Counted from the first letter of the stretch, positions 8,758-52,485 are shown. The stretch is DNA of 60,172 nucleotides from an uncultured Gammaproteobacteria bacterium (GCA_938003715.1 CALKYK010000517.1:1-60172), one strand, 5' to 3'. Notes: generated from the sequence alone by a model not told the origin. Numbers and translations are program-made.

Positions 8758-10095
8758 CTAACGGATGTGCAGCCGGTACGCGATCAGCCCGCCCACGGCC
8801 ATCGGTACCGCAAAGATGTAAAAGTTCGCCGACATGTCGAGCCCGGCAGCGATCAGGTAGCCGGCGACCATCGGGCCGATGACGGCGCCCGAACGCCCGA
8901 GACCAATCGCCCAGCCGATGCCGGTGCTGCGAATTTCCGTCGGGTAGGACTTCGCCGCGGCACCGTAGAGCCCGGTGAACCCGCCCTGCTGCAGGACGCC
9001 GACGATGAATATGATCCACATCAGCAACGAAAGCTCGTTCGGCGCGGATGCAAACACGACCATGCCGATCGCGGACGTGCCGGACAGGACGAAGATCAGG
9101 TTCGTCAATTTGAATTTCGTCGACAGGAAACCGAGCAGGTAGATGCCGATGACGCCGCCGAGATTGAAAAGGAAAAATGCGCGCCGTCCTACCGCCGGCT
9201 CGTAACCCGATGCGTCCATCAGGTTGGGTATCCAGCTCATCAGGAAGTACAGCGTTGAGAAACAGAGGAAGAACGCGGTCCACAGGGTCAGGGTCACGCG
9301 CCGGTGCTCGGGTGCGACGAGCTTCAGCATGACCGTGATGACGCTCTCCTTCTGCTGCGGCTTCGCCACCTCGACGTCCGGCATCACGAGCAGCGTGTCT
9401 TTTTTCAGCTTGCGCAGGATCATGTTGACGCGCTCCAGCGCATCGTGGGGCCGTCGTTCGAAGAGATACTTGAGCGACTCGGGTATCAGGAGCCAGGCAA
9501 CGAGACCCATGGAAAGCGTCAGCGCGCCGCCGAACCAGAACATCCCGCGCCAGCCGTACTCCGGCATGATGAAACCCGCAACGACCGACGTCATCATCGC
9601 CCCCAGCGGATAACCGGAAGTGACCGCAGCGACGGACAGCGCCCGGTACTTGTCCGGGCTGTATTCCGCGGCCAGCGTGGCCTGGCAGGCCAGCATCGCG
9701 CCGGCGCCGAGACCGGAGATGAAGCGGAGCACGATGAATTCGGCGAGCGTCGTCGCGTTCGCGGTGAACAGGATCGACACACCGACCAGCGTGATGCTGA
9801 TGATGATCAGCTTGCGGCGGCCGATAATGTCGGAAACGGGCGCGAGAAACATCGCGCCGGCCATCATGCCGGCGAGGGCGAATCCGAAACTCCAGCCGAG
9901 TCTGTCCGGGGTCAGCGCGAGTTCTGCTGCGACCGGCGTCGCGACGACCGCCATTGCCGTGATGTCGAAGCCGTCGAGCATGTTGAAGAACAGGCACAGG
10001 AATACGACCAGCAGCTGCTGCGCACTGACCTCGCCGTTGTCGATGACGTCGTGAACGAGGGCCTCGCTGCTGACCGCCTGCGGGTGTGCTGACAT
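8758..10095 (-). CDS. MFS transporter, aromatic acid:H+ symporter (AAHS, PcaK-like) family
   Basis: 445 aa, 12-TM pattern. FFNMLDGFDITAMAVV and DIIGRRK motifs are typical of AAHS/MFS_1. Confidence 0.85.
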   Translation of the reverse strand: MSAHPQAVSSEALVHDVIDNGEVSAQQLLVVFLCLFFNMLDGFDITAMAVVATPVAAELALTPDRLGWSFGFALAGMMAGAMFLAPVSDIIGRRKLIIISITLVGVSILFTANATTLAEFIVLRFISGLGAGAMLACQATLAAEYSPDKYRALSVAAVTSGYPLGAMMTSVVAGFIMPEYGWRGMFWFGGALTLSMGLVAWLLIPESLKYLFERRPHDALERVNMILRKLKKDTLLVMPDVEVAKPQQKESVITVMLKLVAPEHRRVTLTLWTAFFLCFSTLYFLMSWIPNLMDASGYEPAVGRRAFFLFNLGGVIGIYLLGFLSTKFKLTNLIFVLSGTSAIGMVVFASAPNELSLLMWIIFIVGVLQQGGFTGLYGAAAKSYPTEIRSTGIGWAIGLGRSGAVIGPMVAGYLIAAGLDMSANFYIFAVPMAVGGLIAYRLHIR

Positions 10096-10215
10096 CGGGT
10101 GTACTCCGTCGGGACGCGTTGGCCGCGTTTATCGTTGCGCGCTAAAGGTATCAGGTTTGCGCCGGGCCGTCCGGCGGCAGCTGACGCTGCGGGTGACGAC
10201 CGGCCCGCGCTGCGG

Positions 10216-10995
10216 TCAGCCGGCCGCGCCGGATCGCTCGAGCAGGTGCGCGTGCAGGCCACCGTCGACCGGGATGTTGGCGCCGCGAATCCAGTTGCTC
10301 GAATCCGACACCAGGAACGCGACGACCGGCGCGATATCGCCGGTCTGCCCCATGCGCTCCGTCAGTGCGATATGCGACTCGGCGCGGTCGCCGAAAGAAA
10401 CGATGAAATCGTCCAGTATCGGCGTCTCGACCGGCCCCGGGCAGACGCTGTTCATGCGCATGCCGCACTCGATGAAATACTGCGATTCCCTGATCGTCCA
10501 GTAGCAGACGATCTCCTTGGAGAACACGTAGGACTTTGCGGCGACGGCGCCGTGCTTCTGCACCATCTCGCCGAGGTTGTCGAACGTCGCGCGGTCGACG
10601 AAGTCGCGGACGGCGGCGATATTGCCCTTCCAGCCGGCACCGGCCAGCGATGAGACGTTGACGATGGACGCGCCGGGGTTCATGCGCTCGATCATCTCGT
10701 TCGTAAAGGTCATCAGGCCGAGCGCGTTCACGGCCAGCACCTCTTCCGGCGGCGCGGTCGGCGGCACGCCGGCGACGTTGCACAGACCGTCGATGCCCGG
10801 CCCTACGTCCCGTACGGCCGCAACGATGGAACGCGGATCGGTGAGGTCGGCCTCGATGCGACGGTCGACCTTGCCGCCGATCGGCACGCGATCGACGCCA
10901 ATGACCGTGGCGCCGTGCTTTTTCAGCTCGCTGACGCACGCCGCGCCGATGCCCGAAGCGGCACCCGTCACGATGACGGTCTTGTTTTTCAGCAT
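10216..10995 (-). CDS. SDR-family oxidoreductase (coniferyl-alcohol / 3-alpha-hydroxysteroid dehydrogenase-like subgroup)
   Basis: 259 aa. TGAASGIGAA, GATVIGVD, IDGLCNVAGVP, NIPVDGGL. The subgroup assignment is from memory of CalA/HsdA-type sequences. Confidence 0.8.
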   Translation of the reverse strand: MLKNKTVIVTGAASGIGAACVSELKKHGATVIGVDRVPIGGKVDRRIEADLTDPRSIVAAVRDVGPGIDGLCNVAGVPPTAPPEEVLAVNALGLMTFTNEMIERMNPGASIVNVSSLAGAGWKGNIAAVRDFVDRATFDNLGEMVQKHGAVAAKSYVFSKEIVCYWTIRESQYFIECGMRMNSVCPGPVETPILDDFIVSFGDRAESHIALTERMGQTGDIAPVVAFLVSDSSNWIRGANIPVDGGLHAHLLERSGAAG

Positions 10996-11017: not shown

Positions 11018-13420
11018 TCAGAACGTGTTCACCTCTAGCGTCTGGTGCGATTGCGGCCGGCGCGCAACGGCGTTGATGATCATGTCCGGCACGACCGGCG
11101 TGCGATTGAAGTACACGCCGCCCAGCGCGTCGGAAATCGCGCACAGGAGCGCCGCCGCCGCGCAGCCCATCAACGGTTCGCCAATGCCCTTGGCGCCGAT
11201 CGGATTCTGCGGGTCAGGCATGTCGACGGCGGCGACCTGCGTTACCGGCGGCACGTCGAGATAGGACGGCGGTTTCGCCTGGTACAGCCCGGTGTTGGCT
11301 GGCAGTCCGTACTGGCGGTCGTAGACGATGCGCTCGAACAGTGCCAGCCCGATGCCCATCACGCCACCACCGCGGATCTGGTTTGCAAGACCCAGCGGAT
11401 GGATGACGGTGCCGCAATCCGCCGTTGCGTGATAGTCGAGGATCTCTACGTGGCCGGTCTCGGTGTCTAGTTCGATCATCATGTACCCGACCGCGAGCGC
11501 CGGCACGACGCCGTTCTTTTCGTAGTTGTCCTTCGCGACGCCGACGAGCCCGGACCCGGCGACGGCGGTGGCGGACGCTTTCGTCAGGAAGAAGACGTCT
11601 TCCGGCAGCGCCTCGCCGGAAAACTTGCCGCCGATCTCGATCGCGCGCTGCGCCACTTCGGCGTACGTCATGCCGCGAGCCGGCACCGCTTTCGAGTAGA
11701 CGCGCCGGCCGTCAATGTCGTAATCCGCTGCATCGCCGCCGAAATCGATGGCGGCGATTTCGAGCATCTTGTTCTTCAGGTCCATGGCGGCCGCATGGTT
11801 CGAACGCGTCATCGTGTATGACGTGTTGCTGCCGAACTGGCCGATGTTCCACGGCAGGTGCTTGCGGCTGTCGCCGCGATGTATGACGCACTGCTCCCAC
11901 TCGCACTGCAGCACCTCCGCGACGACCCGCGACGTGCCCGCGTAGGAATAGGTGCCGAGGTTGCCGACCCCGGAGTGTATGTGCACGAGGCCGTCTGGCG
12001 TCAGGCGAACGAGGCCGTCGAAACCGTTGAAGCCGCCGGAATGGTAGGCCTGCCCGGTGCCGACCCCGATCACTTTCGAGCCGTTGCGCTCGCCGCTGCG
12101 CTGGATTTTTTCTTCCCAGCCGAATTCGCGCGCGCCAATGTCGTAGGCCTCGCGCAGGTACGAACTCGTGATCGGTCCCTGCTCGTCGCTGTAGGTCGCG
12201 TTCATGCCCGGCGCATTGACGCGGCGGATCTCGACGCGATCGATCTCCAGTGCGCGAGCCGCCTTGTCGAGCAGCGGCTCGACCGCCATCGCAATCTGGT
12301 TCTGGCCCGGACCGCGCTGGGCGCCCGCCGGCACCGTGTTCGTCAGCACCGGCACGCCGCGAAAGCGCATCGCTTCCGGCTGGTAGACGAGCGAGACCGC
12401 GTCGGCGGCGGCAGTGTAATCGGGGAAGCCGGTCTTCGGACCGTTTTGCTGCACGATGTAGAGATCGGTCGCGACGATGCGCCCTGTGTCGTCGAAACCC
12501 ATCCGGATGCGGCCCTGGAAACCGGCGCGCGCCGAACCCCAGAAATATTCCTGCTCGCGCGATGCGCGCATCAGCACCGGCCGGCCGACTTTCTTCGACA
12601 GGAACGCGGGAATCAGCATCGCCGCGTAGGCGGAGCCCTTCGAACCGAAACCGCCGCCACAGTACTCGGCGATGAAGACGACGTCCGTGGGATCGATGCC
12701 GAGCATGCCGGCGAGCTGCGGAATCGCGAACGACTGGCTCTGGCAGGAGCCGTGCACGAAACACTTGCCGTTCTCCCAGTAGCACATGGAGCTTCGCGGC
12801 TCCATGCTGTGATGCGAATTGGCCGCGGTGACGAAGGTCTCGTCGAGAATGATCGTTGCCTTGTCGAAGCCCGCCTCGACGTCGCCGTAGGACCAGTCGA
12901 CCATGGGCTTGCCGGTCATCGGCAGTTCGTCCGCGCCGGTGCCGAACTCCGCGTCACTCCACTTCACTTCCTGCATCGGGATGCCGCGGCTCGCCGTGTT
13001 TCCGCCCTCGCGCGCGTTCGGCCCCGTCGGGCGCAGGCTGTCGAGCGGATCGGTGACGAACGGCAGCGGCTCGAGATCGACGCGGATCTTTTCGAGCGCG
13101 AGCGCGCAAAGCTCCTCGGATTCGGCGGCGACGGCGACGATCGGCTCGCCGACATAGGACGGCTCGGCGCTCAGCAGAACCTCCGCGGCGTCTTCCGGCG
13201 GCGGCACGTCGTCCGGCGTCAGAACCCCGTGCACACCGTCCATCGCGAGCGCCGCGCTTGCGTCGATGTGTCTCAAGCGCGCGTGCGGCATCGGGCTGCC
13301 GAGCACCTTGCAGAACAGCATGCCGTCGACGCGGAAGTCCTCGGCATAGCGGGCCTGGCCGGTGACCTTGCCGAAAATGTCCGGCGGCGTGAAATCCTTG
13401 CCGATGTGCTTGTAGGCCAT
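11018..13420 (-). CDS. Xanthine dehydrogenase / aldehyde oxidase family molybdopterin-binding (large) subunit
   Basis: 800 aa. N-terminal KVTGQARYAEDF...LGSPMPHARL pattern and C-terminal GIGEP are typical of Ald_Xan_dh_C/C2 proteins. Confidence 0.9.
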   Translation of the reverse strand: MAYKHIGKDFTPPDIFGKVTGQARYAEDFRVDGMLFCKVLGSPMPHARLRHIDASAALAMDGVHGVLTPDDVPPPEDAAEVLLSAEPSYVGEPIVAVAAESEELCALALEKIRVDLEPLPFVTDPLDSLRPTGPNAREGGNTASRGIPMQEVKWSDAEFGTGADELPMTGKPMVDWSYGDVEAGFDKATIILDETFVTAANSHHSMEPRSSMCYWENGKCFVHGSCQSQSFAIPQLAGMLGIDPTDVVFIAEYCGGGFGSKGSAYAAMLIPAFLSKKVGRPVLMRASREQEYFWGSARAGFQGRIRMGFDDTGRIVATDLYIVQQNGPKTGFPDYTAAADAVSLVYQPEAMRFRGVPVLTNTVPAGAQRGPGQNQIAMAVEPLLDKAARALEIDRVEIRRVNAPGMNATYSDEQGPITSSYLREAYDIGAREFGWEEKIQRSGERNGSKVIGVGTGQAYHSGGFNGFDGLVRLTPDGLVHIHSGVGNLGTYSYAGTSRVVAEVLQCEWEQCVIHRGDSRKHLPWNIGQFGSNTSYTMTRSNHAAAMDLKNKMLEIAAIDFGGDAADYDIDGRRVYSKAVPARGMTYAEVAQRAIEIGGKFSGEALPEDVFFLTKASATAVAGSGLVGVAKDNYEKNGVVPALAVGYMMIELDTETGHVEILDYHATADCGTVIHPLGLANQIRGGGVMGIGLALFERIVYDRQYGLPANTGLYQAKPPSYLDVPPVTQVAAVDMPDPQNPIGAKGIGEPLMGCAAAALLCAISDALGGVYFNRTPVVPDMIINAVARRPQSHQTLEVNTF

Positions 13421-39470: not shown

Positions 39471-40998
39471 TCAAAGCGGGTCGATTTCGTCCAGGTCGGC
39501 GGTCATCAACACGCCGGTCAGCTCCGTCATCGTGAGCGCCTGGTTCCGGAACAGCTCTCTGTTCCAGCGCTCGATGCCGGCGGCGGTGGACCAGTAGTGC
39601 CCGAGAAAGCCGCGTCTCGCAGTTCACGTTGTCGTCCTTGCCGAGCGTCACCACGCCGACGCCCCACCACACCTGTTGAAGACCGCCGTTGATCCCCGGC
39701 CGCTCGGGTGCGACGACCTGCACGCGTTCCCAGCCGTAGCGTTTCGCGGCTGCGATCGCCGCGTCGATCAGGACCGGGTTGTTTCGTGACCAGAGATAGG
39801 ACTGCTCGGCCAGCCCGACCGGTTCGACCCTGCCGTCGACCTCCCGGTAGTCCATTTCACCCAGGTGCTCTGCCTGAACGACCGCGACGAGCGGCGCTTT
39901 GGCCTCCGGGTTCCGGTGCAGCCAGCTGACATCGGTCGCCGCGCCTTCCATGCCCGGGTAGTAATGCCGGTTGTCCAGGAACACGGTCAGCGTGCGAGGC
40001 CGGTGTTGCTGCGGGATATGGGAGAAATACTTGACGATCGCGAGCAGGCCGAGCGCGCCGTTGTCCTGCGTGATCGACGGGCCGTCGGTGTGGTTGATGA
40101 GCAGGATCTGCTCGTCTTCGGGCGTACCGTAATTGCGCCCGGGGAGATACGCGATCGTCTGGTAAGCCTCGGCTTCCTCGATCGTCGCTTTCAGGGTCAG
40201 GGTCGCGGTCCTGCCGGACATCGCGTCCTCGATAACCTTGTCGCCGTCTTCGCGGCTCAGGATCACGCCCGGCGACTCGTGCAGCGGCGGCACGCCAAAC
40301 GTGTACAGGCCCTCGGTCCGTTCGAACGCCATGTCGTAGACGATGACGTGGCCCGCCGCCTTGCCGTCGACCGCGATCTGCCACAGCCGCTGGTTCAGCT
40401 GCCACCAGATGTCGAACGTGAAACTGAATTCCGGCGGCACGTATTCGTAGAGGTCCCAGTACGTATCGTCGTTCGCCCGCCACTCGTAGTCGTTGAACGT
40501 GTAGTTCCGGATGTAGTTGTCGTCGTAGGGCGGCAGCGGGTGGGGCCGGGTCGGGATCACGACGATCTGTCCCTCGATGGAGTCGGGCGGATCGTCGTGA
40601 TCGTAGTAGACGAGCTCCGCCGTAATGCCGTTGTTGGCCGACACGCCCGAGTTTGCCGCGTAGTGCGCGACCCGCACCGGTTCGCCGTCTGAAACCAGCG
40701 TCCAGGACTTCGGGTCGTCGCCCGTGTCCCAGCGCTCGAAGGTCCATGCATTGCGTTGCAGGTCGACGACGCCGTATTCCAGCAGTTTTTCCTCCAGGAA
40801 CCGCACGTAATTGTTCCATTCGGGGCTGCCGGTGATCGCCGGCAGGTTCGCGTCCTTGACCCGTGCCCATTCGTTAGCTTCTTCCGCCGTGACGGTCCAC
40901 GCCGGGTCGAGGTTCGTGAAACGGTCGGCGTAGGGATTGCCGGAATCGCTGCAGGCCGTGAGGACCGCGGCGACCGCGACGATTGCGGTCTTGTTCAT
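39471..40998 (-). pseudogene. Hypothetical lipoprotein gene with a frameshift near its 3' end
   Basis: Lipobox LTAC at the N-terminus. Protein-like sequence runs to ...GVVTLGKDDNVNCE at about 39616. That frame then becomes Arg-rich nonsense and runs into the next gene. A second frame reads RGFLGHYWSTAAGIERWNRELFRNQALTMTELTGVLMTADLDEIDPL then TGA at 39471-39473. Confidence 0.65.
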
Positions 40999-43013: not shown

Positions 43014-43177
43014 TGCCTCGTCCTGTCGCTTTCGGCGCCCGGCCGCATTTCATAACCTGCGACGCGGCGCGCGGGTAAATGCATCCCGTGCACAAATGGT
43101 ACAAACTTGAACCCGTCGCGGCCACGGCTCCAAGCCCGCCCGACGATCTCGGCAATACCGACAGGGGGTGTGACGAC

Positions 43178-44722
43178 ATGGCGCGACGTTCCGGCGGACG
43201 GCAGGCACGTCATGCCCTGCGCAGCGCCCCGCTCAGCGAGGAGATCAAGCCGGTACACCCCGGCGAACGGGGCGGCCGCTACCGGCCGCTGACCGACGGC
43301 GACATCGCCGCGATCGACGCCAACGTGTTTCGCATCCTGGGAGAGGTCGGCTTCAACGACGCGACGCCGCATTGCATTGAGACCTGCACCGCCGCCGGCG
43401 CCGTGCTCGGCGACGACGGCAGGCTGCGCATGCCGCGCGCGATCGTCGAGAAGGCAATCGCGACCGCGGATCACAACCTCACGTTATACGCGCAGGATCC
43501 GAAGTACGACCTCGACCTGTCCGGTTCACGCGTGCACTTCTCGACGGCGGGCGCGGCCGTCATGATCGCCGACACCGCGACGAACTCGTACCGCGAATCG
43601 ACCGCGAAGGACCTGTACGAGATGGCGCGCATCGCGAGCGCCTGCGAACACATCCACATGTTCCAGCGCACCTGCGTTTTGCGCGACATCGAAGACAACT
43701 ACGAGATGGACCTCAACACGACCTACTGCTGCGTCGCCGGCACGACGAAGCACGTCGGTGCGAGCTGGACGCATTACACGCACCTCGAGAAGACGCTGGA
43801 AATGCTGCACGTGATCGCCGGCGGTGAAGACGCCTGGCGGGCACGCCCGTTCGTCAGCCAGTCGAACTGCTTCGTCGTGCCGCCAATGAAGTTCGCGCAG
43901 GACGCGCTCGAGTGCCTGCGCGTGGCGGTCGAAGGCGGCATGCCGGTACTGCTGTTGTCCGCGGGCCAGGCGGGTGCCACGACGCCCGCATGCCTGGCCG
44001 GCACCGTGTCGCAGGCCTGGGCGGAATGCCTGGGCGGACTCGTCTACGTGCAGGCGATCAAGCCCGGCGCGCCGGCGATACTCGGCGCCTGGCCGTTCGT
44101 CTCGGATTTACGCACCGGCGCGATGAGCGGTGGCTCGCCCGAGCAGGGGCTGATCTCGTCCGCCTGCGCGCAGATGGGCCTGCACTACGACCTGCCGTTC
44201 GGCACCGCTTGCGGCATGACCGATTCCAAGATGCCCGACTACCAGGCCGGCGCGGAACGCGCGCTGACGCTGGTCGGCCCCGCGCTGGCCGGCGCCAACC
44301 TGATCTACGAGTCGGCGGGCATGTACGCGAGCCTGCTCGGCACCTGCCCGGAAAGCCTGCTGATGGACAACGACGTGCTCGGCGCGACGCTCCGGATGAC
44401 GCGCGGCATCGAGGTGAACGAGGAAACGCTCAGCTTCGACAACATCAAGGAAGTGTGCGAACGGGGCGAAGGGCATTACCTGGGATCGGACCGCACGCTG
44501 AAAGTGATGCAGAGCGAGTACATCTACCCCGAGTTCAGCGACCGCACCAGCCCCACCGTCTGGGCCGACGCCGGCAAGCCCGTGATGCTCGAGCTTGCCA
44601 AGCTGAAACGCGACGAGTTACTCGCAGCACCGCACCCGAAACACATCAGCGACGAAGTCGACGCCGAGGTGCGCAAGCGATTCCCGATCCGCCTGGCGGC
44701 GGAGGCCGCAGGGCGAAGTTAG
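43178..44722 (+). CDS. Trimethylamine methyltransferase (MttB) superfamily protein, non-pyrrolysine type (quaternary-amine methyltransferase candidate)
   Basis: ATG at 43178 after AGGGGG. 514 aa with no internal TAG. N-terminal RRSGGRQARHALR...PL.D.DI..ID.....ILGEVGF and overall length match MttB-family proteins. Confidence 0.8.
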   Translation: MARRSGGRQARHALRSAPLSEEIKPVHPGERGGRYRPLTDGDIAAIDANVFRILGEVGFNDATPHCIETCTAAGAVLGDDGRLRMPRAIVEKAIATADHNLTLYAQDPKYDLDLSGSRVHFSTAGAAVMIADTATNSYRESTAKDLYEMARIASACEHIHMFQRTCVLRDIEDNYEMDLNTTYCCVAGTTKHVGASWTHYTHLEKTLEMLHVIAGGEDAWRARPFVSQSNCFVVPPMKFAQDALECLRVAVEGGMPVLLLSAGQAGATTPACLAGTVSQAWAECLGGLVYVQAIKPGAPAILGAWPFVSDLRTGAMSGGSPEQGLISSACAQMGLHYDLPFGTACGMTDSKMPDYQAGAERALTLVGPALAGANLIYESAGMYASLLGTCPESLLMDNDVLGATLRMTRGIEVNEETLSFDNIKEVCERGEGHYLGSDRTLKVMQSEYIYPEFSDRTSPTVWADAGKPVMLELAKLKRDELLAAPHPKHISDEVDAEVRKRFPIRLAAEAAGRS

Positions 44723-44777
44723 GCAGTCGCCCGCATTCCTATCCCCTCGTGATTGCGCGCCCTCGTCCCCACCCCCT

Positions 44778-44854
44778 GTCATTGCGAGCGAAGCGAAGCA
44801 ATCCACAAACGCCGCATGGTTTGCCGCGTCGGCCTTCGGCCTCCTCGCAATGAC
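44778..44854. repeat. REP-like palindromic element, copy 1
   Basis: Terminal 11-bp inverted repeat GTCATTGCGAG (44778-44788) / CTCGCAATGAC (44844-44854) with imperfect internal pairing. It is the widespread element whose spurious translations read ...CFASLAMT / ...PRND..., as seen in track ORFs 44618-44884(-) and 44753-44935(+). Confidence 0.7.
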
Positions 44855-45024
44855 CGGATCGCTTGGCCGACGACACGCCGTCACGCGCCGACCGATTCAA
44901 TTGCGACCGTACGTACTCGATATACCCGAATTTGAAAGTCGACTTTTTGCGCAAATAGGCTGGATTCAGTTTTCCAGGCACAAAAAATTGGCCAAAAGGT
45001 CTGTCACTATTGAGACGAAAGTGA

Positions 45025-45060
45025 CAAAAAAATGTCGATTCTTCGGAGAGAAATCGACAT
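45025..45060 (-). terminator. Terminator-like hairpin oriented on the minus strand in the AT-rich rhs leader
   Basis: ATGTCGATT (45032-45040) / AATCGACAT (45052-45060) form a perfect 9-bp stem with an 11-nt loop. On the minus strand the stem is followed by 7 T (plus-strand A-run 45026-45031). The stem is weak (3 GC pairs). Confidence 0.3.
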
Positions 45061-45325
45061 GTTGAATCTGATCGGCAACAGATCACTTTAGTCACATTCC
45101 GCTGCGAACGAAAATTCGCATTCGGATTCATGTTTCCGAGATCCGATAAACAGACAGTTACTCCGCAGTCGCTGGAAAGCATCTTAAGTTTTGGTTATCG
45201 GTTCGCGCGAATCGGACCGTAAAAAAACTGGAACGATTTGCCCAACTTGAATCTGTGCTTTCTTGACCAGACAAAGCCAATCGACTACCCCTGTCCATAG
45301 TCACATATGCGATTGGGTTATATCG

Positions 45326-48300
45326 ATGGACAGAACAAGTTGGGGCTGGCCGTTTGCTGACCGGAGTCGAGCGTCGGACATCGGCTCGCAAAAGAAGCGA
45401 TTTCAAAATCGACTTTCGTTTTTCCTTTCCGCGCTGATTTTGCCGGGCGTTACGTTCGGTCAAAGCAGCGTCGGCATCGAATACGATCACCTGACCCGCC
45501 AGGGCGTCGATGAACGCCTGCAGTCGGACGGTGCAGACCTGCTGGGCGACCAGATCGACCTCAATACTGGGTCCGTCGTCTTCTCGCACACCGACGTATC
45601 CATTCCCGGAAACTTCGATCTCGAGGTGGCGATTCGACGCACGCGGTCGCTGGGAGAGCGGTACGTCAATGACCACGATTTTGCGGACTGGGAATTGCTG
45701 GTCCCGCGTATTACGACAATCGTCGCGCAGCCGAGGTTCAGCGGCAATCTCGAACCGGCGGACTGGAAGACGAATAACGACCGATGCAATTCGGTCAACG
45801 TACTGGGCCCTGTCACAATCTCCGAAGACCCCTACTGGGTGCCTAATATCTTCGATCCTCGTGAAGACACGCCGGACATGTATATCGTCGAGGATTACGA
45901 GTACTCCAACGGCGTTCTCCTTGAGATTCCCGGGCAGGGATCGCGCCAGATACTCGACATCGGCCCGCAAAACCAGTGGCCCGACGACCCGGGCAATCCG
46001 ACGACGAAGGTTACAACGGACAACTGGTATTTCACGTGTATCGACGAAACCGACCCCGAGGCACCCACGGCGGGTGGTGAAGGATTTGTCGGGACTGCTC
46101 CGAACGGAGACAAATTCACGTTCAACAAACTGATCTACCGAACGACGCCGAAGATGAACGTGGCCAACACGTATCTCGAGCGAAGCACGGCAATCATGCT
46201 CGCGACGAAGGTCGTGGATGTCGATGGCAATGAGGTTACCTATTCGTATCTAGCGAACGGCAGCCTCGACAGCATCGCCTCGAGCGACGGCCGAACAATC
46301 GATGTCGAGTACACGAATGGCCTGATCAGCAAAGTCATCGCAAACCAGGGCTCTCCCGACGAACGCGAATGGGACTACGCGTACAACAGCGGGCCCAGTA
46401 TCGCAACGACTCTGCAGACGGTGACGTTGCCCGATTCCCGCCAATGGACATTCGACCTGAATCAAATGGACGTTATGGCGGACCCGAAATACGACTGCAC
46501 CAAGGCTCCGTATACGGTTTCATTGACGCATCCAAACGGTGCCACAGGCAGTTTCACCTTTTCCGAGACACGCCACCTCAAAGGCAACACCAACGGCAAG
46601 GATGCAACTTCGCTAAGTTGCTTGGGCGGCCCCAAGATCGAGCAGCCTTACTTCGATGCCATGTCGCTCACGCAAAAGACACTTTCAGGCACGAACTATC
46701 CCGATGCAACCTGGACGTACACCTATTCCGGCTATACCGGCGGCACCGTACCGAGCATCAAGTGGACGGAAATGATCGATCCGCTGGGCCACAAGACCCG
46801 CCAGGAGTTCGATCGCGGATCGAGTTTCGAAGGCATGATGCTGAAGAACGAGCGCTTCGAAACCTCGGGCAGTGGCAGCCCATCGCAAACAATAGACCAG
46901 ACGTACCTGATCGAAAGCAGCGTCGGCTCGACCTTTTTGCAGAACACGAACCAGGACAAGCTGCACAAGCCCCGTCGCGAGGATACGACCACGAACACCC
47001 GCGGCACCGATGTGCACACCACGGTGATCGAGTACAACACGACGCAGTCCTCGACCGATTACAGCCATGGCTTTCCGACGAAGATTACGCGGTCAAACAA
47101 TTACTCGGGCATGCCGGCACGCTACGTGGACCGCACCTACGCCCACGATCGCGACGACTGGGTACTCGGACTGGTCGCTACCCTGAGTCGCAACGGGTAA
47201 CTTTTCGATACGCTCGTCTACGATTCCGTCGGACACCTTACCGAGCATCACCGCTTCGGCAGCCTTTTCCGCAAGGCCGGTTACCATGTGACAAGCGGCC
47301 AGAAGGGCGCACTCGCCTGGGTCGAGGATGCGCTTGCGATGCCACGGCGCATCAGCTTCGACAACTACAAACGCGGCCTGCCCGAGCTCATCACCCGCGC
47401 GGACCAATCGACACTGTCGCGCGTCGTCGACGACAACGGCTGGGTCACTTCCGAAACCGACGGCAACGGCGTCACCGTTACCTACGACTACACCGACGCA
47501 GGCTGGCTCAAGACCATCGACCGGCCGAGCGTGCCGGACGCCTGGTCCGATACGACGATCACGTATTCGTCGCTCGGCAACGGAATCGTGCAAACGTCCA
47601 CCCGCGGTACAACCAAGGTAACGACATCGTATGACAGCCTGGCCCGGCCATATCTCGTCAAAACGGAGCCGACGAACGGCGACGGTACGACCAGCTATGT
47701 CGCCACTGACTATGACGCGCTCAGCCAGGTAATCTTTACTTCGTTTCCTGTCGAGTCGCTGCCGCCTCCTCCCACTCCGCTTGACGGAACGTTCACAACC
47801 TACGATTCCCTGGGACGAAAGCTGGTCGAAACAGAAAACGTGGCTCCAAATGCGACCACAAGTTACGTTTACGAAGCCAACCATCGAACAAAGGTAACGG
47901 ATCCCGAGAACAGGATCACATATCACGACTTCCACGCGTTCGGCGACCCCGACGATGCCGAGCTGCATCACATCTACCAGCCGCACAACGGGTCGGCCAT
48001 CAGCACCTGGATGTACCGCAACGATTACGGGCAGACCACGCGCATCCGGCAGCACGGCTTCCATGGCACCGAAGAGCTGGACTATTCGCACTACTTCTAC
48101 ATGGATGCGCAGGAGCGAGTCTGCCGCATGTCGACGCCTGAAGGCGGGCACACCGTTTACCAGTACAACGCCGCCTACGAGATGATCGCCTATGCCAAGG
48201 GTGTCGACGGCAGTACGACGAGCTGCGTAACGCCTGCCGGAAGCAGCAGAGTCGCGCTGGAATACGACGACCTGGGCCGGCTCGAAAAAACGCTGTTCGA

Positions 48301-50212
48301 CGACGCCGATACGCCGGACATCATCCGGTCGTATGACGGCAACGGAAATCTCCTGACCGTCGATCGGGACGCTGCCAGCCCGGCGAACGACGTCGAGTTG
48401 ACATATACGTACGACTCGGCGAACAACATCAGGAGTGAAGAACTGGTAATCGATGGCCGCACGTACACGCTGGGCTACGACTACCACTCGGACGGGCATC
48501 TTGAGCAGCGCACCTATCCCGGTAATGTCGTCATCGACTACACGCTCAACGGGCTCGGCCAGCCGAAGACCGTCCAGAACGGCAGCACCGTGTATGTCAG
48601 CAATGCCGTGTACCACGCCAACGGCAGCCTGGAATCGGCGACCTACGGCAACGGCCATTCCCTGATCAACACCTGGACGCCACGGCAGCAGCTCGACCGC
48701 AACTACATTCACGACGGCGGTACGAACGTCGCCGTCGATCTCGACTACGGCTACAACGCCCGCGGCCAGGTCACAAGCATCACCGACGGTGTGGATGCCG
48801 GCAACAATCGCGTCTACGGCTACGATGACGTCGGGCGCCTGGAGACGGCCAGCGGCCCCTGGGGCAGCGGCAGCTTCGACATCGACCCGCTCGGCAACAT
48901 CCGCTCCAAGACCCTCGGTTCGGTCACGGATACGATCAGCTACGATGCGATCACCAACCGCGCCTCATCGCATACCCGCAGCGGCCAGTCGGCGAGGACC
49001 ATCCAGTACAACGAGACGCTCGATCGCGGCAACGTCACCGATCTCGGCGGCATGGCCTTTTCCTACGACTATTCCGACCAGCCGGTGGCACAGACCGGCA
49101 GCGTAGCCGCGGACTATCGCTACGACGGCAACAGGCGCCGCGCCTACCAGGACCTCGACGGCAAGGAGATCTACTCCTTCTACGATGCCGCGGGCGCGCT
49201 GGTGCACCGGGACGACGATACCGCCGGTGAGGCGACGAATTACATCGCCGCGGCCGGCACGGTCCTCCGGCTGGAAGACGCCGGCACCGGCTATGCGATT
49301 GGGGAGTACACCTTCTCCGATCACCTCGGCTCGCCGCTAGCGGCGACCGGGTCCACCGCACCCGTCACCTGGCGGGAACGCTACAAGCCGTTCGGCGAAA
49401 AGATCACCGACCCGGCAGAGAATCGCGACGAGCCGGGATTCACGAGCCATGTGCAGGACGATGCTACCGGCCTCACCTACATGCAGGCGCGGTTCTACGA
49501 CCCGATGCTGGGACGGTTTTTGAGTATTGATCCGGTTGGCTTTTCACCAGAGAAGCCGTATATGTTTAATCGTTACTCATATGTAGGCAATGATCCTATA
49601 AATTTAGTCGATCCTTTTGGCATGTATGGCTCCTGCGCCGAATTTCGGGATGCTGGCAACACTCAACAGTCTTGTGCCGAAATTGAAGGAATTACGGGTG
49701 TTCCGTTTGATGACGAGCGTGAGCTTGCGCAGGCAGCCGGCAATGCACTGAATGCGCTGTCAGCCGCTGACAAGAATGAATGGGGAATCGCGTTTTCCAG
49801 AAACGAAGACGGTAACTTGACAGCATCGGTGGCTATCAGTGGTTCGTTAGATCCTGATGGAATTGCTTCGGGTGATCCCGCCGGAATTACGATGTCCACG
49901 CTGCTAGACGGAGTCGATAATCCTGTCGGAGACGGCCATACTCATGGCCTCCAAGCCGCCGAGCAATTGCAAGTAGAAAGCCCCGATGATATTAGACTTG
50001 CTCACCAAAAAGCCTATAACGGGCGGCGAAAAGGTGGCGATGGCAAGTTTAACTCCTACGTATATACTGCATCAGGACGGGCTCACCTCATCCGAGGTGA
50101 TTCTTTTCGCCATCCTTTTTCACGAAATCCAACCTCGACCGACATATACCGAGCCACAGATCCATCTGTTGTCCAGCGAGACGTTTTTCGGGTGAGTAGA
50201 ATATTGCCGTAA
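45326..50212 (+). pseudogene. RHS/YD-repeat polymorphic toxin with Sec-type signal peptide; reading frame interrupted by one in-frame TAA
   Basis: ORFs 45263-47200 and 47288-50212 are in the same frame. 47201-47287 is open and protein-like (LFDTLVYDSVGHLTEHHRF...). Many YD repeats are present (VTYDYTDAGWL, YGYDDVGRL, YTYDSANN...). The RHS core end reads YMQARFYDPMLGRFLSIDP...NDPINLVDPFGM. The N-terminus has KKRFQNRLSFFLSALILPGVTFGQ. Confidence 0.85.
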
Positions 50213-50247
50213 CTGATTGCTTTTGTGCCAATGAATACAAAACGACT

Positions 50248-50706
50248 ATGTGCATAAGAAATTATTCGACTATTGCGACTATTCTGGCGCTCGCGCATTT
50301 GGCCAGCTGCGCGGAACAATCGACTGTGCAGGATAATTCCGTACCAATGGACCCGGATAAATTTTTCACGCTGGCGTGGACAGATGCAAGCTTGGAAAGT
50401 CATTCTTTGTCGTATCCGGGATACAAATGGTGCTGCACCATTTTTTCTGACGAACACCGTGCCGTTAAATCTGTGGTTGCCCACATGGTAGTCAATGGTC
50501 TGGGCAATCTCGATGAGTATGGGTTCGTCGTTGGCCAAACATCATCTTTATACATAGTGGATGCAGCGCCACGATTTTTTGATTGTGGCGACTCCCCGAA
50601 CATCTGTGACGGGAGTTTTCCTTACTTCACTAAGACGTCAAAGGCGTATACCTACATTCTCGATAGGGAATCAGCTGTCGTGATCGAATACTATCCGCAG
50701 ATTTGA
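50248..50706 (+). CDS. Candidate cognate immunity protein (small lipoprotein)
   Basis: 152 aa ORF starting 35 nt after the rhs stop. Low GC like the toxin tip. Lipobox ILALAHLASC. No obvious RBS and no family recognised. The immunity role is inferred from position only. Confidence 0.5.
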   Translation: MCIRNYSTIATILALAHLASCAEQSTVQDNSVPMDPDKFFTLAWTDASLESHSLSYPGYKWCCTIFSDEHRAVKSVVAHMVVNGLGNLDEYGFVVGQTSSLYIVDAAPRFFDCGDSPNICDGSFPYFTKTSKAYTYILDRESAVVIEYYPQI

Positions 50707-50857
50707 CAAACACGCAGCGGAACCGTGGTAGTGAATGATGTGATTGAGGAACTCCGGTAGCGAGTAGTATTGAAAAGATTAGCCGGTTAGTCTCCATTTC
50801 ACGAACATGATTACGGGTCGACTAAATTACGGAATCTCTGATTTTTACAGGTGATTT

Positions 50858-51220
50858 ATGATCGAGAGATTAATCAAACTAGTAGTCTGTCACCTCATTT
50901 TCTTACTGAACACAGCGATTGCCTGCGACAAACCAATGTCAGTCACGATTCCTGACGGCAATTCGGCCATCCCTCGACAAATGGTTGCGGTTCAGGACGA
51001 GATTCGCAACTACGTGGCGGAGATGGGCGAGTATCTCGAGTGCGTCGCCACGGAGAAGAAACGCTCGCAGCGAGACATCGCGAACCTCACTTCCGAGCTT
51101 CGGCAGTTGCGGCAGGATCAGCTGGACGAGGAATACAACGCCGCCATTGACGAGATGGAGCAGGTCGTTCTGCTGCACAATCGCGAAGCGAAGAAGTTCA
51201 GGGAGAGGGACCGAACGTAG
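50858..51220 (+). CDS. Small hypothetical lipoprotein with a coiled-coil-like C-terminal half
   Basis: 120 aa. AGGTGA sits 5 nt before the ATG. Lipobox NTAIAC. Charged heptad-like LRQLRQDQLDEEYNAAIDEMEQ. Confidence 0.55.
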   Translation: MIERLIKLVVCHLIFLLNTAIACDKPMSVTIPDGNSAIPRQMVAVQDEIRNYVAEMGEYLECVATEKKRSQRDIANLTSELRQLRQDQLDEEYNAAIDEMEQVVLLHNREAKKFRERDRT

Positions 51221-51221
51221 G

Positions 51222-51277
51222 TCGAAGCAACTGTTGCGATGGATTGCTTCGTCGGCCTTCGGCCTCCTCGCAATGAC
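51222..51277. repeat. REP-like element, copy 2 (partial), same orientation as copy 1
   Basis: 51250-51277 is identical to 44827-44854 (CGTCGGCCTTCGGCCTCCTCGCAATGAC). 51239-51277 versus 44816-44854 is 36/39 identical. It also contains the hairpin CGAAGCAA-N13-TTGCTTCG directly after the stop at 51220. Confidence 0.7.
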
Positions 51278-51285
51278 GGGACAGA

Positions 51286-52485
51286 TTATCCGGACGCGAG
51301 TCGCGCGTTTTCCGCCGCGACCTGTCCCTGCGGCGGAGCTTCGTCGAGCGAGGTCACCGGCACGAGGCGCCGCACCATCGCGTGGAAGCGTAGCAGCGTG
51401 TTTTCCTCCGCCGAGAACGGGCCCGGGCGGTAGCCCGTAGTGCGCAGCCCCTTGTGCACGAGCTCGTAGAGCGTGCTGTCGTGGTCGTGGACCGGCTCGT
51501 TGATCGCGATGTTGAGTTCGCGCAGCCGCTCTTCTTCCTTCGTCGGGTTCGGATGGCCGTAGTACGCGGCACGCACCAGGGTCCGGTCGTGGCTCAACGG
51601 GATCAGTTGGAAGATATCCAGCATCTCGGGATACAGGTCGATACCGAGGTTGCCGGCGACGCCGAACTGCACCCACTGTCCCTTGATCTCGCCCGGCACG
51701 CGCTTGTTCGCAAAGTGAAATTTCTCCTGGTACTCGCGCTCGATGTCGACGCTCGACGGCCTGTCCTTCAGTTCGAACACGCCGTAGTTTGCGCCGTTAC
51801 CCAGGTGCTCGCCGATGTCGGTCACCTCGAGCAGGCGAAACAGGCCGGGATGGCCGACCGGAATGTGATAGTTCTCGAGGTAGTTGTCCCACGCCACCTT
51901 CCAGTTAACGGTCCATTCCTGGAACGATTCCTCGCGGAAGCACACGTAGTTCGCGACGTCGTACATCTCGAAGTACTGCGCGGAGTGCGCAACGGTCTCG
52001 GCCACCGTCGGCCCGTCGCCTCTTACGTTCACGAACACGAGACCGTGGAACACCTCGAGCGAGATTTCGTGCATGCCGTAGTCGGCGCGGCTGAAGTCGT
52101 CGAAGTCCTCCTCCTGCGGCACGCCGAGCAGCTTGCCGTCGAGCCTGTAGGTCCAGCCGTGATACGGGCACTTCACGACGCCGCGGCAGCTGCCCTTGCC
52201 TTCGAGCAGGCGCGAGCCGCGGTGCCGGCAGACGTTGAGGAACGCGCGTAGCTCGTCGTCCTTGCCGCGCAGGACCACGACGTTGTCGCGCCCTATCGAT
52301 GCGGTCATGTAGTCGCCGGCCGATATCACTTCGTTGACGTGGCCGACGAACTGCCAGCGGCGCAGGAAGAACGCGTCGTACTCGAGCTCGAAAAGCTCCG
52401 GGTTCAGGTAGGTCCACGGCGCAAGCGGCGAGCCGCCGTCAACCGCCGGTCCGTAGTGCGCCTTTTTTTCTGCCGTTTCGTTCAC
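51286..52485 (-). CDS. Rieske [2Fe-2S] non-haem iron oxygenase, alpha subunit (GbcA/CntA/Stc2-like quaternary-amine monooxygenase candidate)
   Basis: 399 aa. Rieske motif CRHRGSRLLEGKGSCRGVVKCPYHGW. Substrate is guessed from genomic context only. Confidence 0.85.
   Translation of the reverse strand: MNETAEKKAHYGPAVDGGSPLAPWTYLNPELFELEYDAFFLRRWQFVGHVNEVISAGDYMTASIGRDNVVVLRGKDDELRAFLNVCRHRGSRLLEGKGSCRGVVKCPYHGWTYRLDGKLLGVPQEEDFDDFSRADYGMHEISLEVFHGLVFVNVRGDGPTVAETVAHSAQYFEMYDVANYVCFREESFQEWTVNWKVAWDNYLENYHIPVGHPGLFRLLEVTDIGEHLGNGANYGVFELKDRPSSVDIEREYQEKFHFANKRVPGEIKGQWVQFGVAGNLGIDLYPEMLDIFQLIPLSHDRTLVRAAYYGHPNPTKEEERLRELNIAINEPVHDHDSTLYELVHKGLRTTGYRPGPFSAEENTLLRFHAMVRRLVPVTSLDEAPPQGQVAAENARLASG

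Follow-up and report, generated by a model that had tools for sequence, protein, structure and literature searches.

A low-GC island between two catabolic genes

The stretch of DNA analysed here (the window) comprises 60,172 nucleotides from an uncultured gammaproteobacterium (GCA_938003715.1, CALKYK010000517.1:1-60172) and contains, at 44,858–51,238, a 6.4-kb accessory block (the island) that carries an rhs toxin gene and two small lipoprotein genes. The island lies between an mttB-like, non-pyrrolysine methyltransferase gene reading rightward (43,079–44,722, +; PF06253, E 3.6e-111) and a gene for the alpha subunit of a Rieske oxygenase reading leftward (51,286–52,485, −; PF00355 and PF00848). 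Right of the Rieske gene follow two DMGDH-type genes, a BKACE gene, a 3HCDH (carnitine dehydrogenase-type) gene and an acyl-CoA dehydrogenase gene, and the window outside the island contains metabolic and transport genes only. These domain matches bear out what an earlier reading of the sequence (the original prediction) had assigned to the two flanks: the mttB-like gene on the left and, on the right, the Rieske gene, two DMGDH-type genes, a BKACE gene and a carnitine dehydrogenase-type gene. The island itself begins with an AT-rich leader (44,858–45,325, +; GC 0.46 in a composition scan), followed by the rhs gene, whose 3' end encodes a toxin domain, and by the lipoprotein genes sm1 (lipobox LASC; 50,248–50,706, +) and sm2 (lipobox AIAC; 50,858–51,220, +). 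The leader of ~470 bp and both small lipoprotein genes had been predicted and are there; the predicted lack of an integrase or transposase also held, as domain searches found neither in any island ORF (open reading frame) and no integrase elsewhere in the window.

Among accessory DNA, Rhs toxin-immunity modules of unusual composition are frequent. The expected compositional contrast, computed for windowed GC and for tetranucleotides, proved pronounced: the GC content of the island is 0.558, against 0.635 ± 0.013 in 204 windows of the same length (6.4 kb) elsewhere in the stretch (z −5.8), and its tetranucleotide distance from windows elsewhere has a z of 12.3. GC content at third codon positions (GC3) is 0.87 in mttB, Rieske and dmgdh1, which are native in composition, and inside the island ranges from 0.73–0.78 in the Rhs shell to 0.44 in the toxin domain, 0.51 in sm1 and 0.72 in sm2. 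The compositional borders are abrupt, at ~44,860 and ~51,230, and match the positions of two copies of a repeat in the same orientation.

Related loci were collected by a scan with the MttB protein, one genome per species, which gave 80 loci at 73–82% identity from Woeseiaceae, Halieaceae/Luminiphilus, 'Azophilus' and unnamed gammaproteobacteria. The mttB-like gene is kept in all 80, and in nearly all loci long enough to judge it faces dmgdh1 and dmgdh2. In most relatives mttB, sometimes followed by a corrinoid-protein gene, stands directly against dmgdh1; in the closest locus (L001, 82%) the mttB-dmgdh1 gap is only ~35 bp. Rhs, sm1 or sm2 sequence occurs in none of the 80 loci, which supports the predicted accessory insertion between convergent, functionally related catabolic genes. 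The empty site had been expected to consist of mttB, one repetitive extragenic palindromic (REP) copy and the Rieske gene; this arrangement was not found among the 80 loci, and a REP arm follows mttB in L007 alone. Nor is the Rieske gene constant: it occupies this position in only three relatives (L005, L007 and L014). Exact-protein look-ups for an empty site in the same species met only the source population (ENA ERZ869942, Logan SRR7515933).

Other relatives carry different cargo after mttB: an OLD-type AAA_15 ATPase with a UvrD helicase, a Gabija-like pair (L043, 13,829–17,719); a type ISP methyltransferase (L074, 11,704–15,150, and L078); and an AAA-ATPase/PD-(D/E)XK protein, an NYN/OST-HTH protein and two proteins without a domain match (L035, 12,283–18,656); a racemase gene is further cargo of this spot (L005). 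In this lineage, therefore, accessory and conflict genes have repeatedly settled 3' of mttB. We regard the island as horizontally acquired, in an uncultured gammaproteobacterium related to Woeseiaceae. The cargo spot is intergenic, after mttB or after mttB and the corrinoid-protein gene. A B12-binding corrinoid protein is encoded right after mttB in L004, L006, L009, L013, L017, L020, L034, L043, L053 and L068; its gene is absent at this position in the window and in its two closest relatives, L001 and L002.

An Rhs cocoon gene broken by a stop codon

The original prediction of a 4.9-kb rhs gene was correct in that an Rhs toxin gene is present, but its frame is broken by an in-frame TAA at 47,198–47,200 (+), which leaves two ORFs of 624 aa and 957–974 aa; joined across the stop, the product would measure ~1,628 aa. 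The N-terminal fragment (45,326–47,200, +), described from translation, alignment and modelling, ends at the premature TAA and comprises a predicted cleavable Sec-type signal peptide (~aa 1–47), placed directly before the RHS region, and the start of the cocoon. Its N-terminus shows a basic segment, a hydrophobic core and a small-residue cleavage site, of AxA-Q type in most of 20 aligned relatives, and several cysteines are invariant in the N-terminal shell of the aligned proteins. A model of residues 1–440 (predicted local distance difference test score, pLDDT, 76; residues 1–69 disordered) matches Rhs, Tc and teneurin cocoons, the best match being the cocoon of a type VI secretion system (T6SS) Rhs protein (7pq5, E 1.9e-7). 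The rest of the shell (47,201–49,624, +) contains YD repeats (PF05593, E 6.5e-14) and the Rhs-associated core (TIGR03696, 78 bits against a cut-off of 32.5; residues 728–808, nucleotides 49,382–49,624), which ends ...NDPINLVDPFGM at nucleotide 49,624.

A search with the Rhs protein returned 245 relatives at E ≤ 1e-20, the best of them (P0001) 58% identical. Among the 120 relatives listed, most are single ORFs of ~1,500–1,700 aa. Their hosts are marine alphaproteobacteria (Hyphomonas, Henriciella, Robiginitomaculum, Parvularcula, Hellea) and gammaproteobacteria (Pseudidiomarina, Rheinheimera, Glaciecola, Kangiellaceae), and the C-terminal domains of the proteins differ widely, with HNH, colicin E5-like, Hint and DUF4329 domains among them. 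Domain searches found no PAAR match, the signal peptide is followed by no extra delivery domain, and genes for a T6SS, VgrG or an Eag chaperone are present neither in the 60-kb window nor next to the three relatives examined. The same three relatives have no conserved secretion partner beside them; each is followed by a small downstream gene. A link to a T6SS, which the original prediction had raised, is thus not indicated by the Sec signal peptide, the lack of PAAR and the lack of T6SS genes in the window. By its sequence the protein belongs instead to a stand-alone class composed of signal peptide, Rhs cocoon and C-terminal toxin.

Comparison with described Rhs proteins sharpens this assignment. 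The T6SS effectors Rhs/Tre23 of Photorhabdus laumondii (7pq5) and RhsA of Pseudomonas protegens (7q97) share with the island protein the cocoon fold, an Rhs-associated core with a DPxG motif before a variable C-terminal toxin, an immunity gene right downstream and a toxin/immunity cassette lower in GC than the shell. However, these effectors have a PAAR or VgrG-binding module where the island protein has a Sec signal peptide, and the island gene is broken by a stop and has no T6SS, VgrG or Eag genes in its window. The WapA toxins are tRNases with cytoplasmic immunity proteins. The order of signal peptide, YD/RHS repeats, polymorphic toxin and immunity gene is common to WapA of Bacillus subtilis, to the signal-peptide RHS toxins that Zhang et al. 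2012 (PMC3482391) list as a class exported by the Sec and type II secretion system (T2SS) route, and to the island; in contrast to WapA, the island protein belongs to a diderm gammaproteobacterium, where an outer-membrane step would be needed. Rhs proteins with a signal peptide and no PAAR occur widely in marine alpha- and gammaproteobacteria, and their exit from the diderm cell is of general interest.

The shell and the toxin of the island protein appear to have separate histories. GC content drops from ~0.65 to ~0.45 between 49,425 and 49,575, a step that falls within the conserved Rhs core, shortly ahead of the toxin boundary, and the closest shell relative, P0001, bears an unrelated C-terminal toxin. 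This combination is the usual signature of cassette exchange, and the toxin and sm1 were probably swapped in together by recombination inside the Rhs core. A tblastn search of the window found no other rhs fragments or orphan toxin cassettes.

The column occupied by the TAA holds mostly lysine, and sometimes arginine, threonine or valine, in 20 aligned relatives (motif NG-K-LFD, with the stop at K), and conservation continues on both sides of it. This pattern is most simply read as a nonsense change of one base, the simplest being AAA to TAA at 47,198. Recoding by selenocysteine or pyrrolysine was rejected, since the stop is TAA and not TGA or TAG. The TAA is present in three assemblies that are identical over the whole island: the window, a 590-kb ENA metagenome contig (ERZ869942 NODE_4, ~14x coverage) with 99.9% identity to the window, and a separate 6,444-bp Logan contig (run SRR7515933) that is identical to the window over 44,825–51,268. 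In two assemblies the gene callers give the 624-aa product. These data suggest that the rhs gene is a probable pseudogene of its family rather than a non-member.

It is improbable that the toxin gene is functional, the TAA being an assembly or consensus error or one allele, minor or major, in a mixed population that also holds an intact 1,628-aa gene. The 4.9-kb frame is otherwise uninterrupted and can be aligned with relatives over its whole length, so any inactivation must be very recent; the population is mixed nearby, as a cluster of single-nucleotide polymorphisms separates the window from the ENA contig in the Rieske gene; and a second sample holds a variant of the toxin-sm1-sm2 stretch, on a low-coverage contig (ERZ869938) that spans the toxin end and sm1 and reaches into the start of sm2, with 98.3% identity. 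However, the three assemblies agree across the island, TAA included, and the protein collection holds no intact version on record, its best match being the relative at 58% identity.

It is extremely unlikely that the split is functional, with two polypeptides that jointly build a cocoon in the manner of TcB and TcC of Tc toxins. Tc cocoons are indeed made of two chains, Tc BC components are among the fold matches, and gene callers find a downstream start. These next in-frame starts, GTG at 47,288 and ATG at 47,339, however, lie 29 and 46 codons beyond the stop, and their use would delete conserved shell residues. The stop replaces one conserved codon, no linker has been inserted there, and neither a ribosome-binding site nor a start codon adjoins it; the C-terminal piece lacks a signal peptide while the N-terminal piece would be exported; and a break at this position occurs in none of the 20 aligned proteins, in a family whose listed members are mostly full-length.

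A JAB-like toxin domain and its probable lipoprotein partner

The C-terminal toxin domain (49,625–50,212, +) comprises 195 aa and was characterised by alignment, weak profile matches and fold searches. An exhaustive HMMER search of 1.84 billion representative proteins returned 14 matches at E ≤ 0.001, ~8 of them genuine, and several of these genuine relatives are short orphan cassettes that start inside an Rhs core; the domain is therefore rare. In the family alignment E52, P100, H105 and H107 are invariant and are followed in most members by SxxD, which gives the motif E52...H105-T-H107...S-x-x-D; the H[TSKV]H element reads HTH or HSH in six of eight members and HKH or HVH in the others, and two conserved cysteines lie near the N-terminus of the domain. 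This pattern is that of JAMM/MPN+ proteins and equals the E, H[ST]H, S and D listed for Tox-JAB-2 (DUF4329) in PMC3482391. PF14220 (DUF4329) matches three of the eight family members (best E 4.6e-4), a Prok-JAB match stands at E 0.008, and a profile match to the DUF4329-type toxin of P0003 covers 33 columns only, at 63% probability. In Pfam at E ≤ 10, DUF4329 was the only match for the toxin and sm1 had none. A PDB fold search placed CSN5, Rpn11-type proteins, CSN6, a bacterial Ubl-deubiquitinase and deaminases at the top (E ≥ 0.02, TM ~0.26), while a search of viral folds returned JAB, MPN and RadC proteins and p25 of Xanthomonas phage Xop411.

Sequence and model together suggest a divergent JAB-type domain related to Tox-JAB-2 and outside PF14220. 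With Tox-JAB-2/DUF4329 the island toxin shares the E, H[ST]H, S and D residues, on what may be an alpha+beta fold, the C-terminal position in proteobacterial RHS proteins and a weak fold match to Xop411 p25; Xanthomonas phages such as OP1 are among the Tox-JAB-2 carriers listed in PMC3482391. The partner of the island toxin is, in contrast, a lipoprotein and not Imm-NTF2-2 or a CdiI-like protein. Tox-JAB-1 with Imm65 offers the converse likeness: it too combines a JAB-type toxin on a signal-peptide RHS protein with lipoprotein immunity (PMC3482391), but it is described in Bacteroidetes only and has an NxxxE motif, whereas the island host is a gammaproteobacterium. Two arrangements of orphan cassettes were seen among the toxin relatives: in L087 (730–3,631) an HExxH-type toxin with a lipoprotein is followed in tandem by a JAB-type toxin with a lipoprotein, and in L088 (743–2,261) and L089 the JAB-type cassette adjoins an rve-family transposase fragment.

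The gene sm1 starts 36 nucleotides 3' of the toxin gene and encodes a lipoprotein of 152 aa. It has no Pfam or NCBIfam match, and a direct search of 5.8 billion protein clusters returned only sm1 itself; its homologues were reached only through the genes downstream of toxin relatives. The genes directly behind two other toxins of the family also encode lipoproteins, of 164 aa (L088) and 175 aa (L087). By BLASTP sm1 is 24% identical to the L088 lipoprotein over 153 aa (E 6.5e-8), the L088 and L087 lipoproteins match each other at E 5e-14, and CC and Y-x-x-x-R motifs are common to the three proteins. Behind the DUF4329-type toxin of P0003, too, stands a lipoprotein. Given this conserved adjacency in three independent loci, sm1 is a candidate cognate immunity protein. 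Lipoprotein immunity and the conserved cysteines of the toxin together point to action in the periplasm, which we infer from sequence.

We consider it likely that the island is a stand-alone Rhs polymorphic-toxin module, acquired horizontally at a variable spot 3' of mttB, in which the toxin has been disabled by a nonsense change and sm1 is the immunity gene. The ~1,628-aa precursor, with its Sec signal peptide, would be exported to the periplasm; its YD-repeat shell would enclose the 195-aa C-terminal toxin, and the Rhs-associated core would cleave after ...DPFGM. The released toxin, a putative zinc hydrolase of JAB/JAMM type related to Tox-JAB-2/DUF4329, would act in the cell envelope of a neighbour, while the sm1 lipoprotein would serve as the cognate immunity protein and block the toxin in the periplasm. 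The nonsense change would cut the signal peptide and the first 624 aa from the remainder of the shell and the toxin. The locus would then, most likely, provide immunity only, and the whole is most likely an island of a known general kind with a recently inactivated toxin gene.

Several points weigh against this interpretation. The JAB assignment falls below every curated or significance threshold (in Pfam, PF14220 matches the toxin at E 0.016 and 15.6 bits against a cut-off of 28.6, and Foldseek gives E ≥ 0.0016, the value for the viral fold matches), and the AlphaFold model of the toxin, built from five sequences, has a moderate pLDDT of 64.6 (predicted template modelling score, pTM, 0.70). 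A literature search found no activity reported for any Tox-JAB toxin, and the nuclease prediction of 2012 (PMC3482391) fits a periplasmic immunity protein poorly. The link of sm1 to the other lipoproteins amounts to 24–27% identity in three loci, the search for T6SS genes covered 60 kb of the genome, and a Sec-exported Rhs protein would still have to cross the outer membrane of a diderm cell. The stop is known at the assembly level, and the assemblies may share the same or sister read sets.

The nuclease prediction also underlies the other reading of the toxin, which we regard as rather unlikely: that it acts on nucleic acid in the cytoplasm, sm1 either intercepting it in transit or not being its immunity protein. 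According to PMC3482391, the JAB clades of toxins have no ubiquitin-tail tunnel and could be nucleases of the RadC kind; RadC-like proteins are among the viral fold matches, and Salmonella Rhs toxins with DUF4329 are listed with cytoplasmic, CdiI-type immunity proteins. However, lipoproteins stand directly behind the toxin in three loci of the clade and also behind the P0003 toxin, the two conserved toxin cysteines suggest a disulfide and an oxidising compartment, and no translocation domain is evident in the 195-aa toxin.

A toxin clade that combines lipoprotein immunity with conserved cysteines yields a clear prediction open to test, namely a target in the cell envelope; the interest of the island would be higher if a periplasmic JAB activity is real. 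We regard it as possible, though doubtful, that the toxin and sm1 are a rare unclassified pair comprising a periplasmic JAB/JAMM metallohydrolase (e.g. an isopeptidase or amidase acting on peptidoglycan cross-links or on the lipoprotein-peptidoglycan link, and not a nuclease) delivered by a Sec-dependent, T6SS-independent Rhs cocoon, and that, separately, the border repeat is an undescribed mobile or structured element found across phyla.

The second small gene, sm2, was called by gene callers in two assemblies and encodes a predicted lipoprotein of 120 aa with a helical, charged C-terminal part. It has no significant match in Pfam, NCBIfam, PDB or plasmid searches and no copy in the related loci, and forms a singleton cluster. 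It might be an orphan immunity gene, among other possibilities. We set aside a colicin-type release function, as the relatives examined have no equivalent gene in third place and sm2 is much longer than proteins of that type.

Border repeats and the leader

The two same-orientation REP-like copies that had been predicted at the borders share an exact 27-nucleotide core, GTCGGCCTTCGGCCTCCTCGCAATGAC, which occurs in the window only at 44,828 and 51,251 (none expected in shuffled sequence), and their similarity reaches 54 nucleotides at 83% identity. The copies are, however, not equivalent: the left one is a full hairpin pair and the right one a half unit. The left repeat (44,775–44,857; core 44,828–44,854), defined by repeat comparison and RNA folding, has the arms GTCATTGCGAG (44,778–44,788) and CTCGCAATGAC (44,844–44,854), which form a perfect outer stem of 11 bp in a predicted fold of −37.4 kcal/mol. 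The right repeat (51,239–51,280; core 51,251–51,277) has the right arm only and ends 6–9 nucleotides before the Rieske stop codon.

The role of the repeats as borders specific to the island was not borne out, as the repeat is one of a family that occurs in many phyla. An exact 25-mer of the core is present, among the matches listed, in more than 120 unrelated metagenome contigs (loci L091–L210) that range in GC content from 0.34 to 0.74 and were sampled from soil, sediment and gut. The conserved unit spans ~36 nucleotides, (A/G)GATTGC(C/T)NCGT-CGGCCTTCGGCCTC-CTCGCAATGAC; among the matches listed, 60 of 125 copies have the inverted arm GTCATTGCGAG... within 130 nucleotides upstream, and some contigs hold many repeat arms. 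The border repeat is therefore a generic, widespread hairpin repeat and not the attachment (att) site of this island. Rfam holds no matching family, and a literature search found no paper quoting the sequence, only unrelated primer matches. As a short, GC-rich, imperfect palindrome placed in intergenic DNA after convergent genes, in pairs or as single arms, and linked to rearrangement junctions, the unit resembles REP and bacterial interspersed mosaic element (BIME) repeats. Classical REPs, in contrast, are species- or genus-specific, whereas the 25-mer of the border unit spans contigs of very different base composition and habitat. The exact conservation of so short a repeat across such different genomes is unexplained.

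A rival reading, in which the two copies would be the attL and attR sites of a site-specific mobile element with its integrase lost or encoded elsewhere, is very unlikely. The exact core of 27–28 nucleotides does lie in the same orientation exactly at the compositional borders, and the Logan assembler breaks contigs at both copies, so that the island forms a separate 6,444-bp contig. But the 25-mer is carried, among the matches listed, by those many unrelated contigs, often in a hairpin pair and sometimes in many copies per contig; the likeness of the two copies stops at the repeat unit; and neither the island nor the window contains an integrase. The Logan breaks are as expected of a multi-copy repeat, and alone they do not show a variant with an empty site. 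An integrase-mobilised genomic island was rejected on the same grounds, as domain searches found no recombinase domain and the flanking repeat is generic rather than specific to the island.

Even so, the repeats probably serve as the substrate on which recombination placed the island or could remove it; since the copies are direct, recombination between them would remove the island precisely. A comparable junction is present in a relative, L007, where a GGTCATTGCGAG arm lies 45 nucleotides after mttB, against a truncated racemase gene. In L005 the same Asp/Glu racemase gene is intact between mttB and Rieske (9,767–10,456), while L007 keeps only its 3' part (11,598–11,821), with the deletion junction directly at the GGTCATTGCGAG arm. 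At this site, L007 adds a second rearrangement marked by the repeat. The region 3' of mttB is of interest as a recurrent home of conflict genes (toxin, Gabija-like pair, restriction-modification) with a cross-phyla repeat at junctions.

The leader contains a perfect 9-bp inverted repeat, ATGTCGATT (45,032–45,040) ... AATCGACAT (45,052–45,060), with an 11-nucleotide loop, ~270 bp 5' of the rhs start, which could be an operator or the remnant of a terminator. The island as a whole, leader and repeats included, has no Rfam match at E ≤ 1, a promoter scan found no sigma-70-like site in the leader, and terminator-like sites are not enriched; a regulatory RNA in the leader or repeats was set aside on these scans. 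A minus-strand ORF of 147 aa (44,739–45,182) was judged spurious, as it lacks a family match and was skipped by both gene callers.

Three further observations concern the flanks. Rfam PYLIS_3, the pyrrolysine insertion sequence of mttB, matches 44,216–44,315 (+) with 47.5 bits against a gathering score of 38, and the match sits inside the mttB-like ORF, which has no in-frame TAG; it probably reflects coding conservation in a non-pyrrolysine MttB paralogue and not a working recoding signal. In the Rieske gene, the window and the ENA contig differ by ten mismatches in 42 bp (51,448–51,489), which change seven of 12 residues (HDHDSTLYELVH in the window, NDEDRMLCERVQ in ENA). An exact-protein look-up found no record of the Rieske protein of the window, and the patch could reflect strain-level recombination, a paralogue-derived patch or an assembly chimera. 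Lastly, at ~39,602–39,613, inside a large ORF of Tricorn/amidohydrolase type, the window is ~35 bp shorter than the ENA and Logan contigs, and a short overlapping alignment suggests that the difference lies in the copy number of a tandem repeat.

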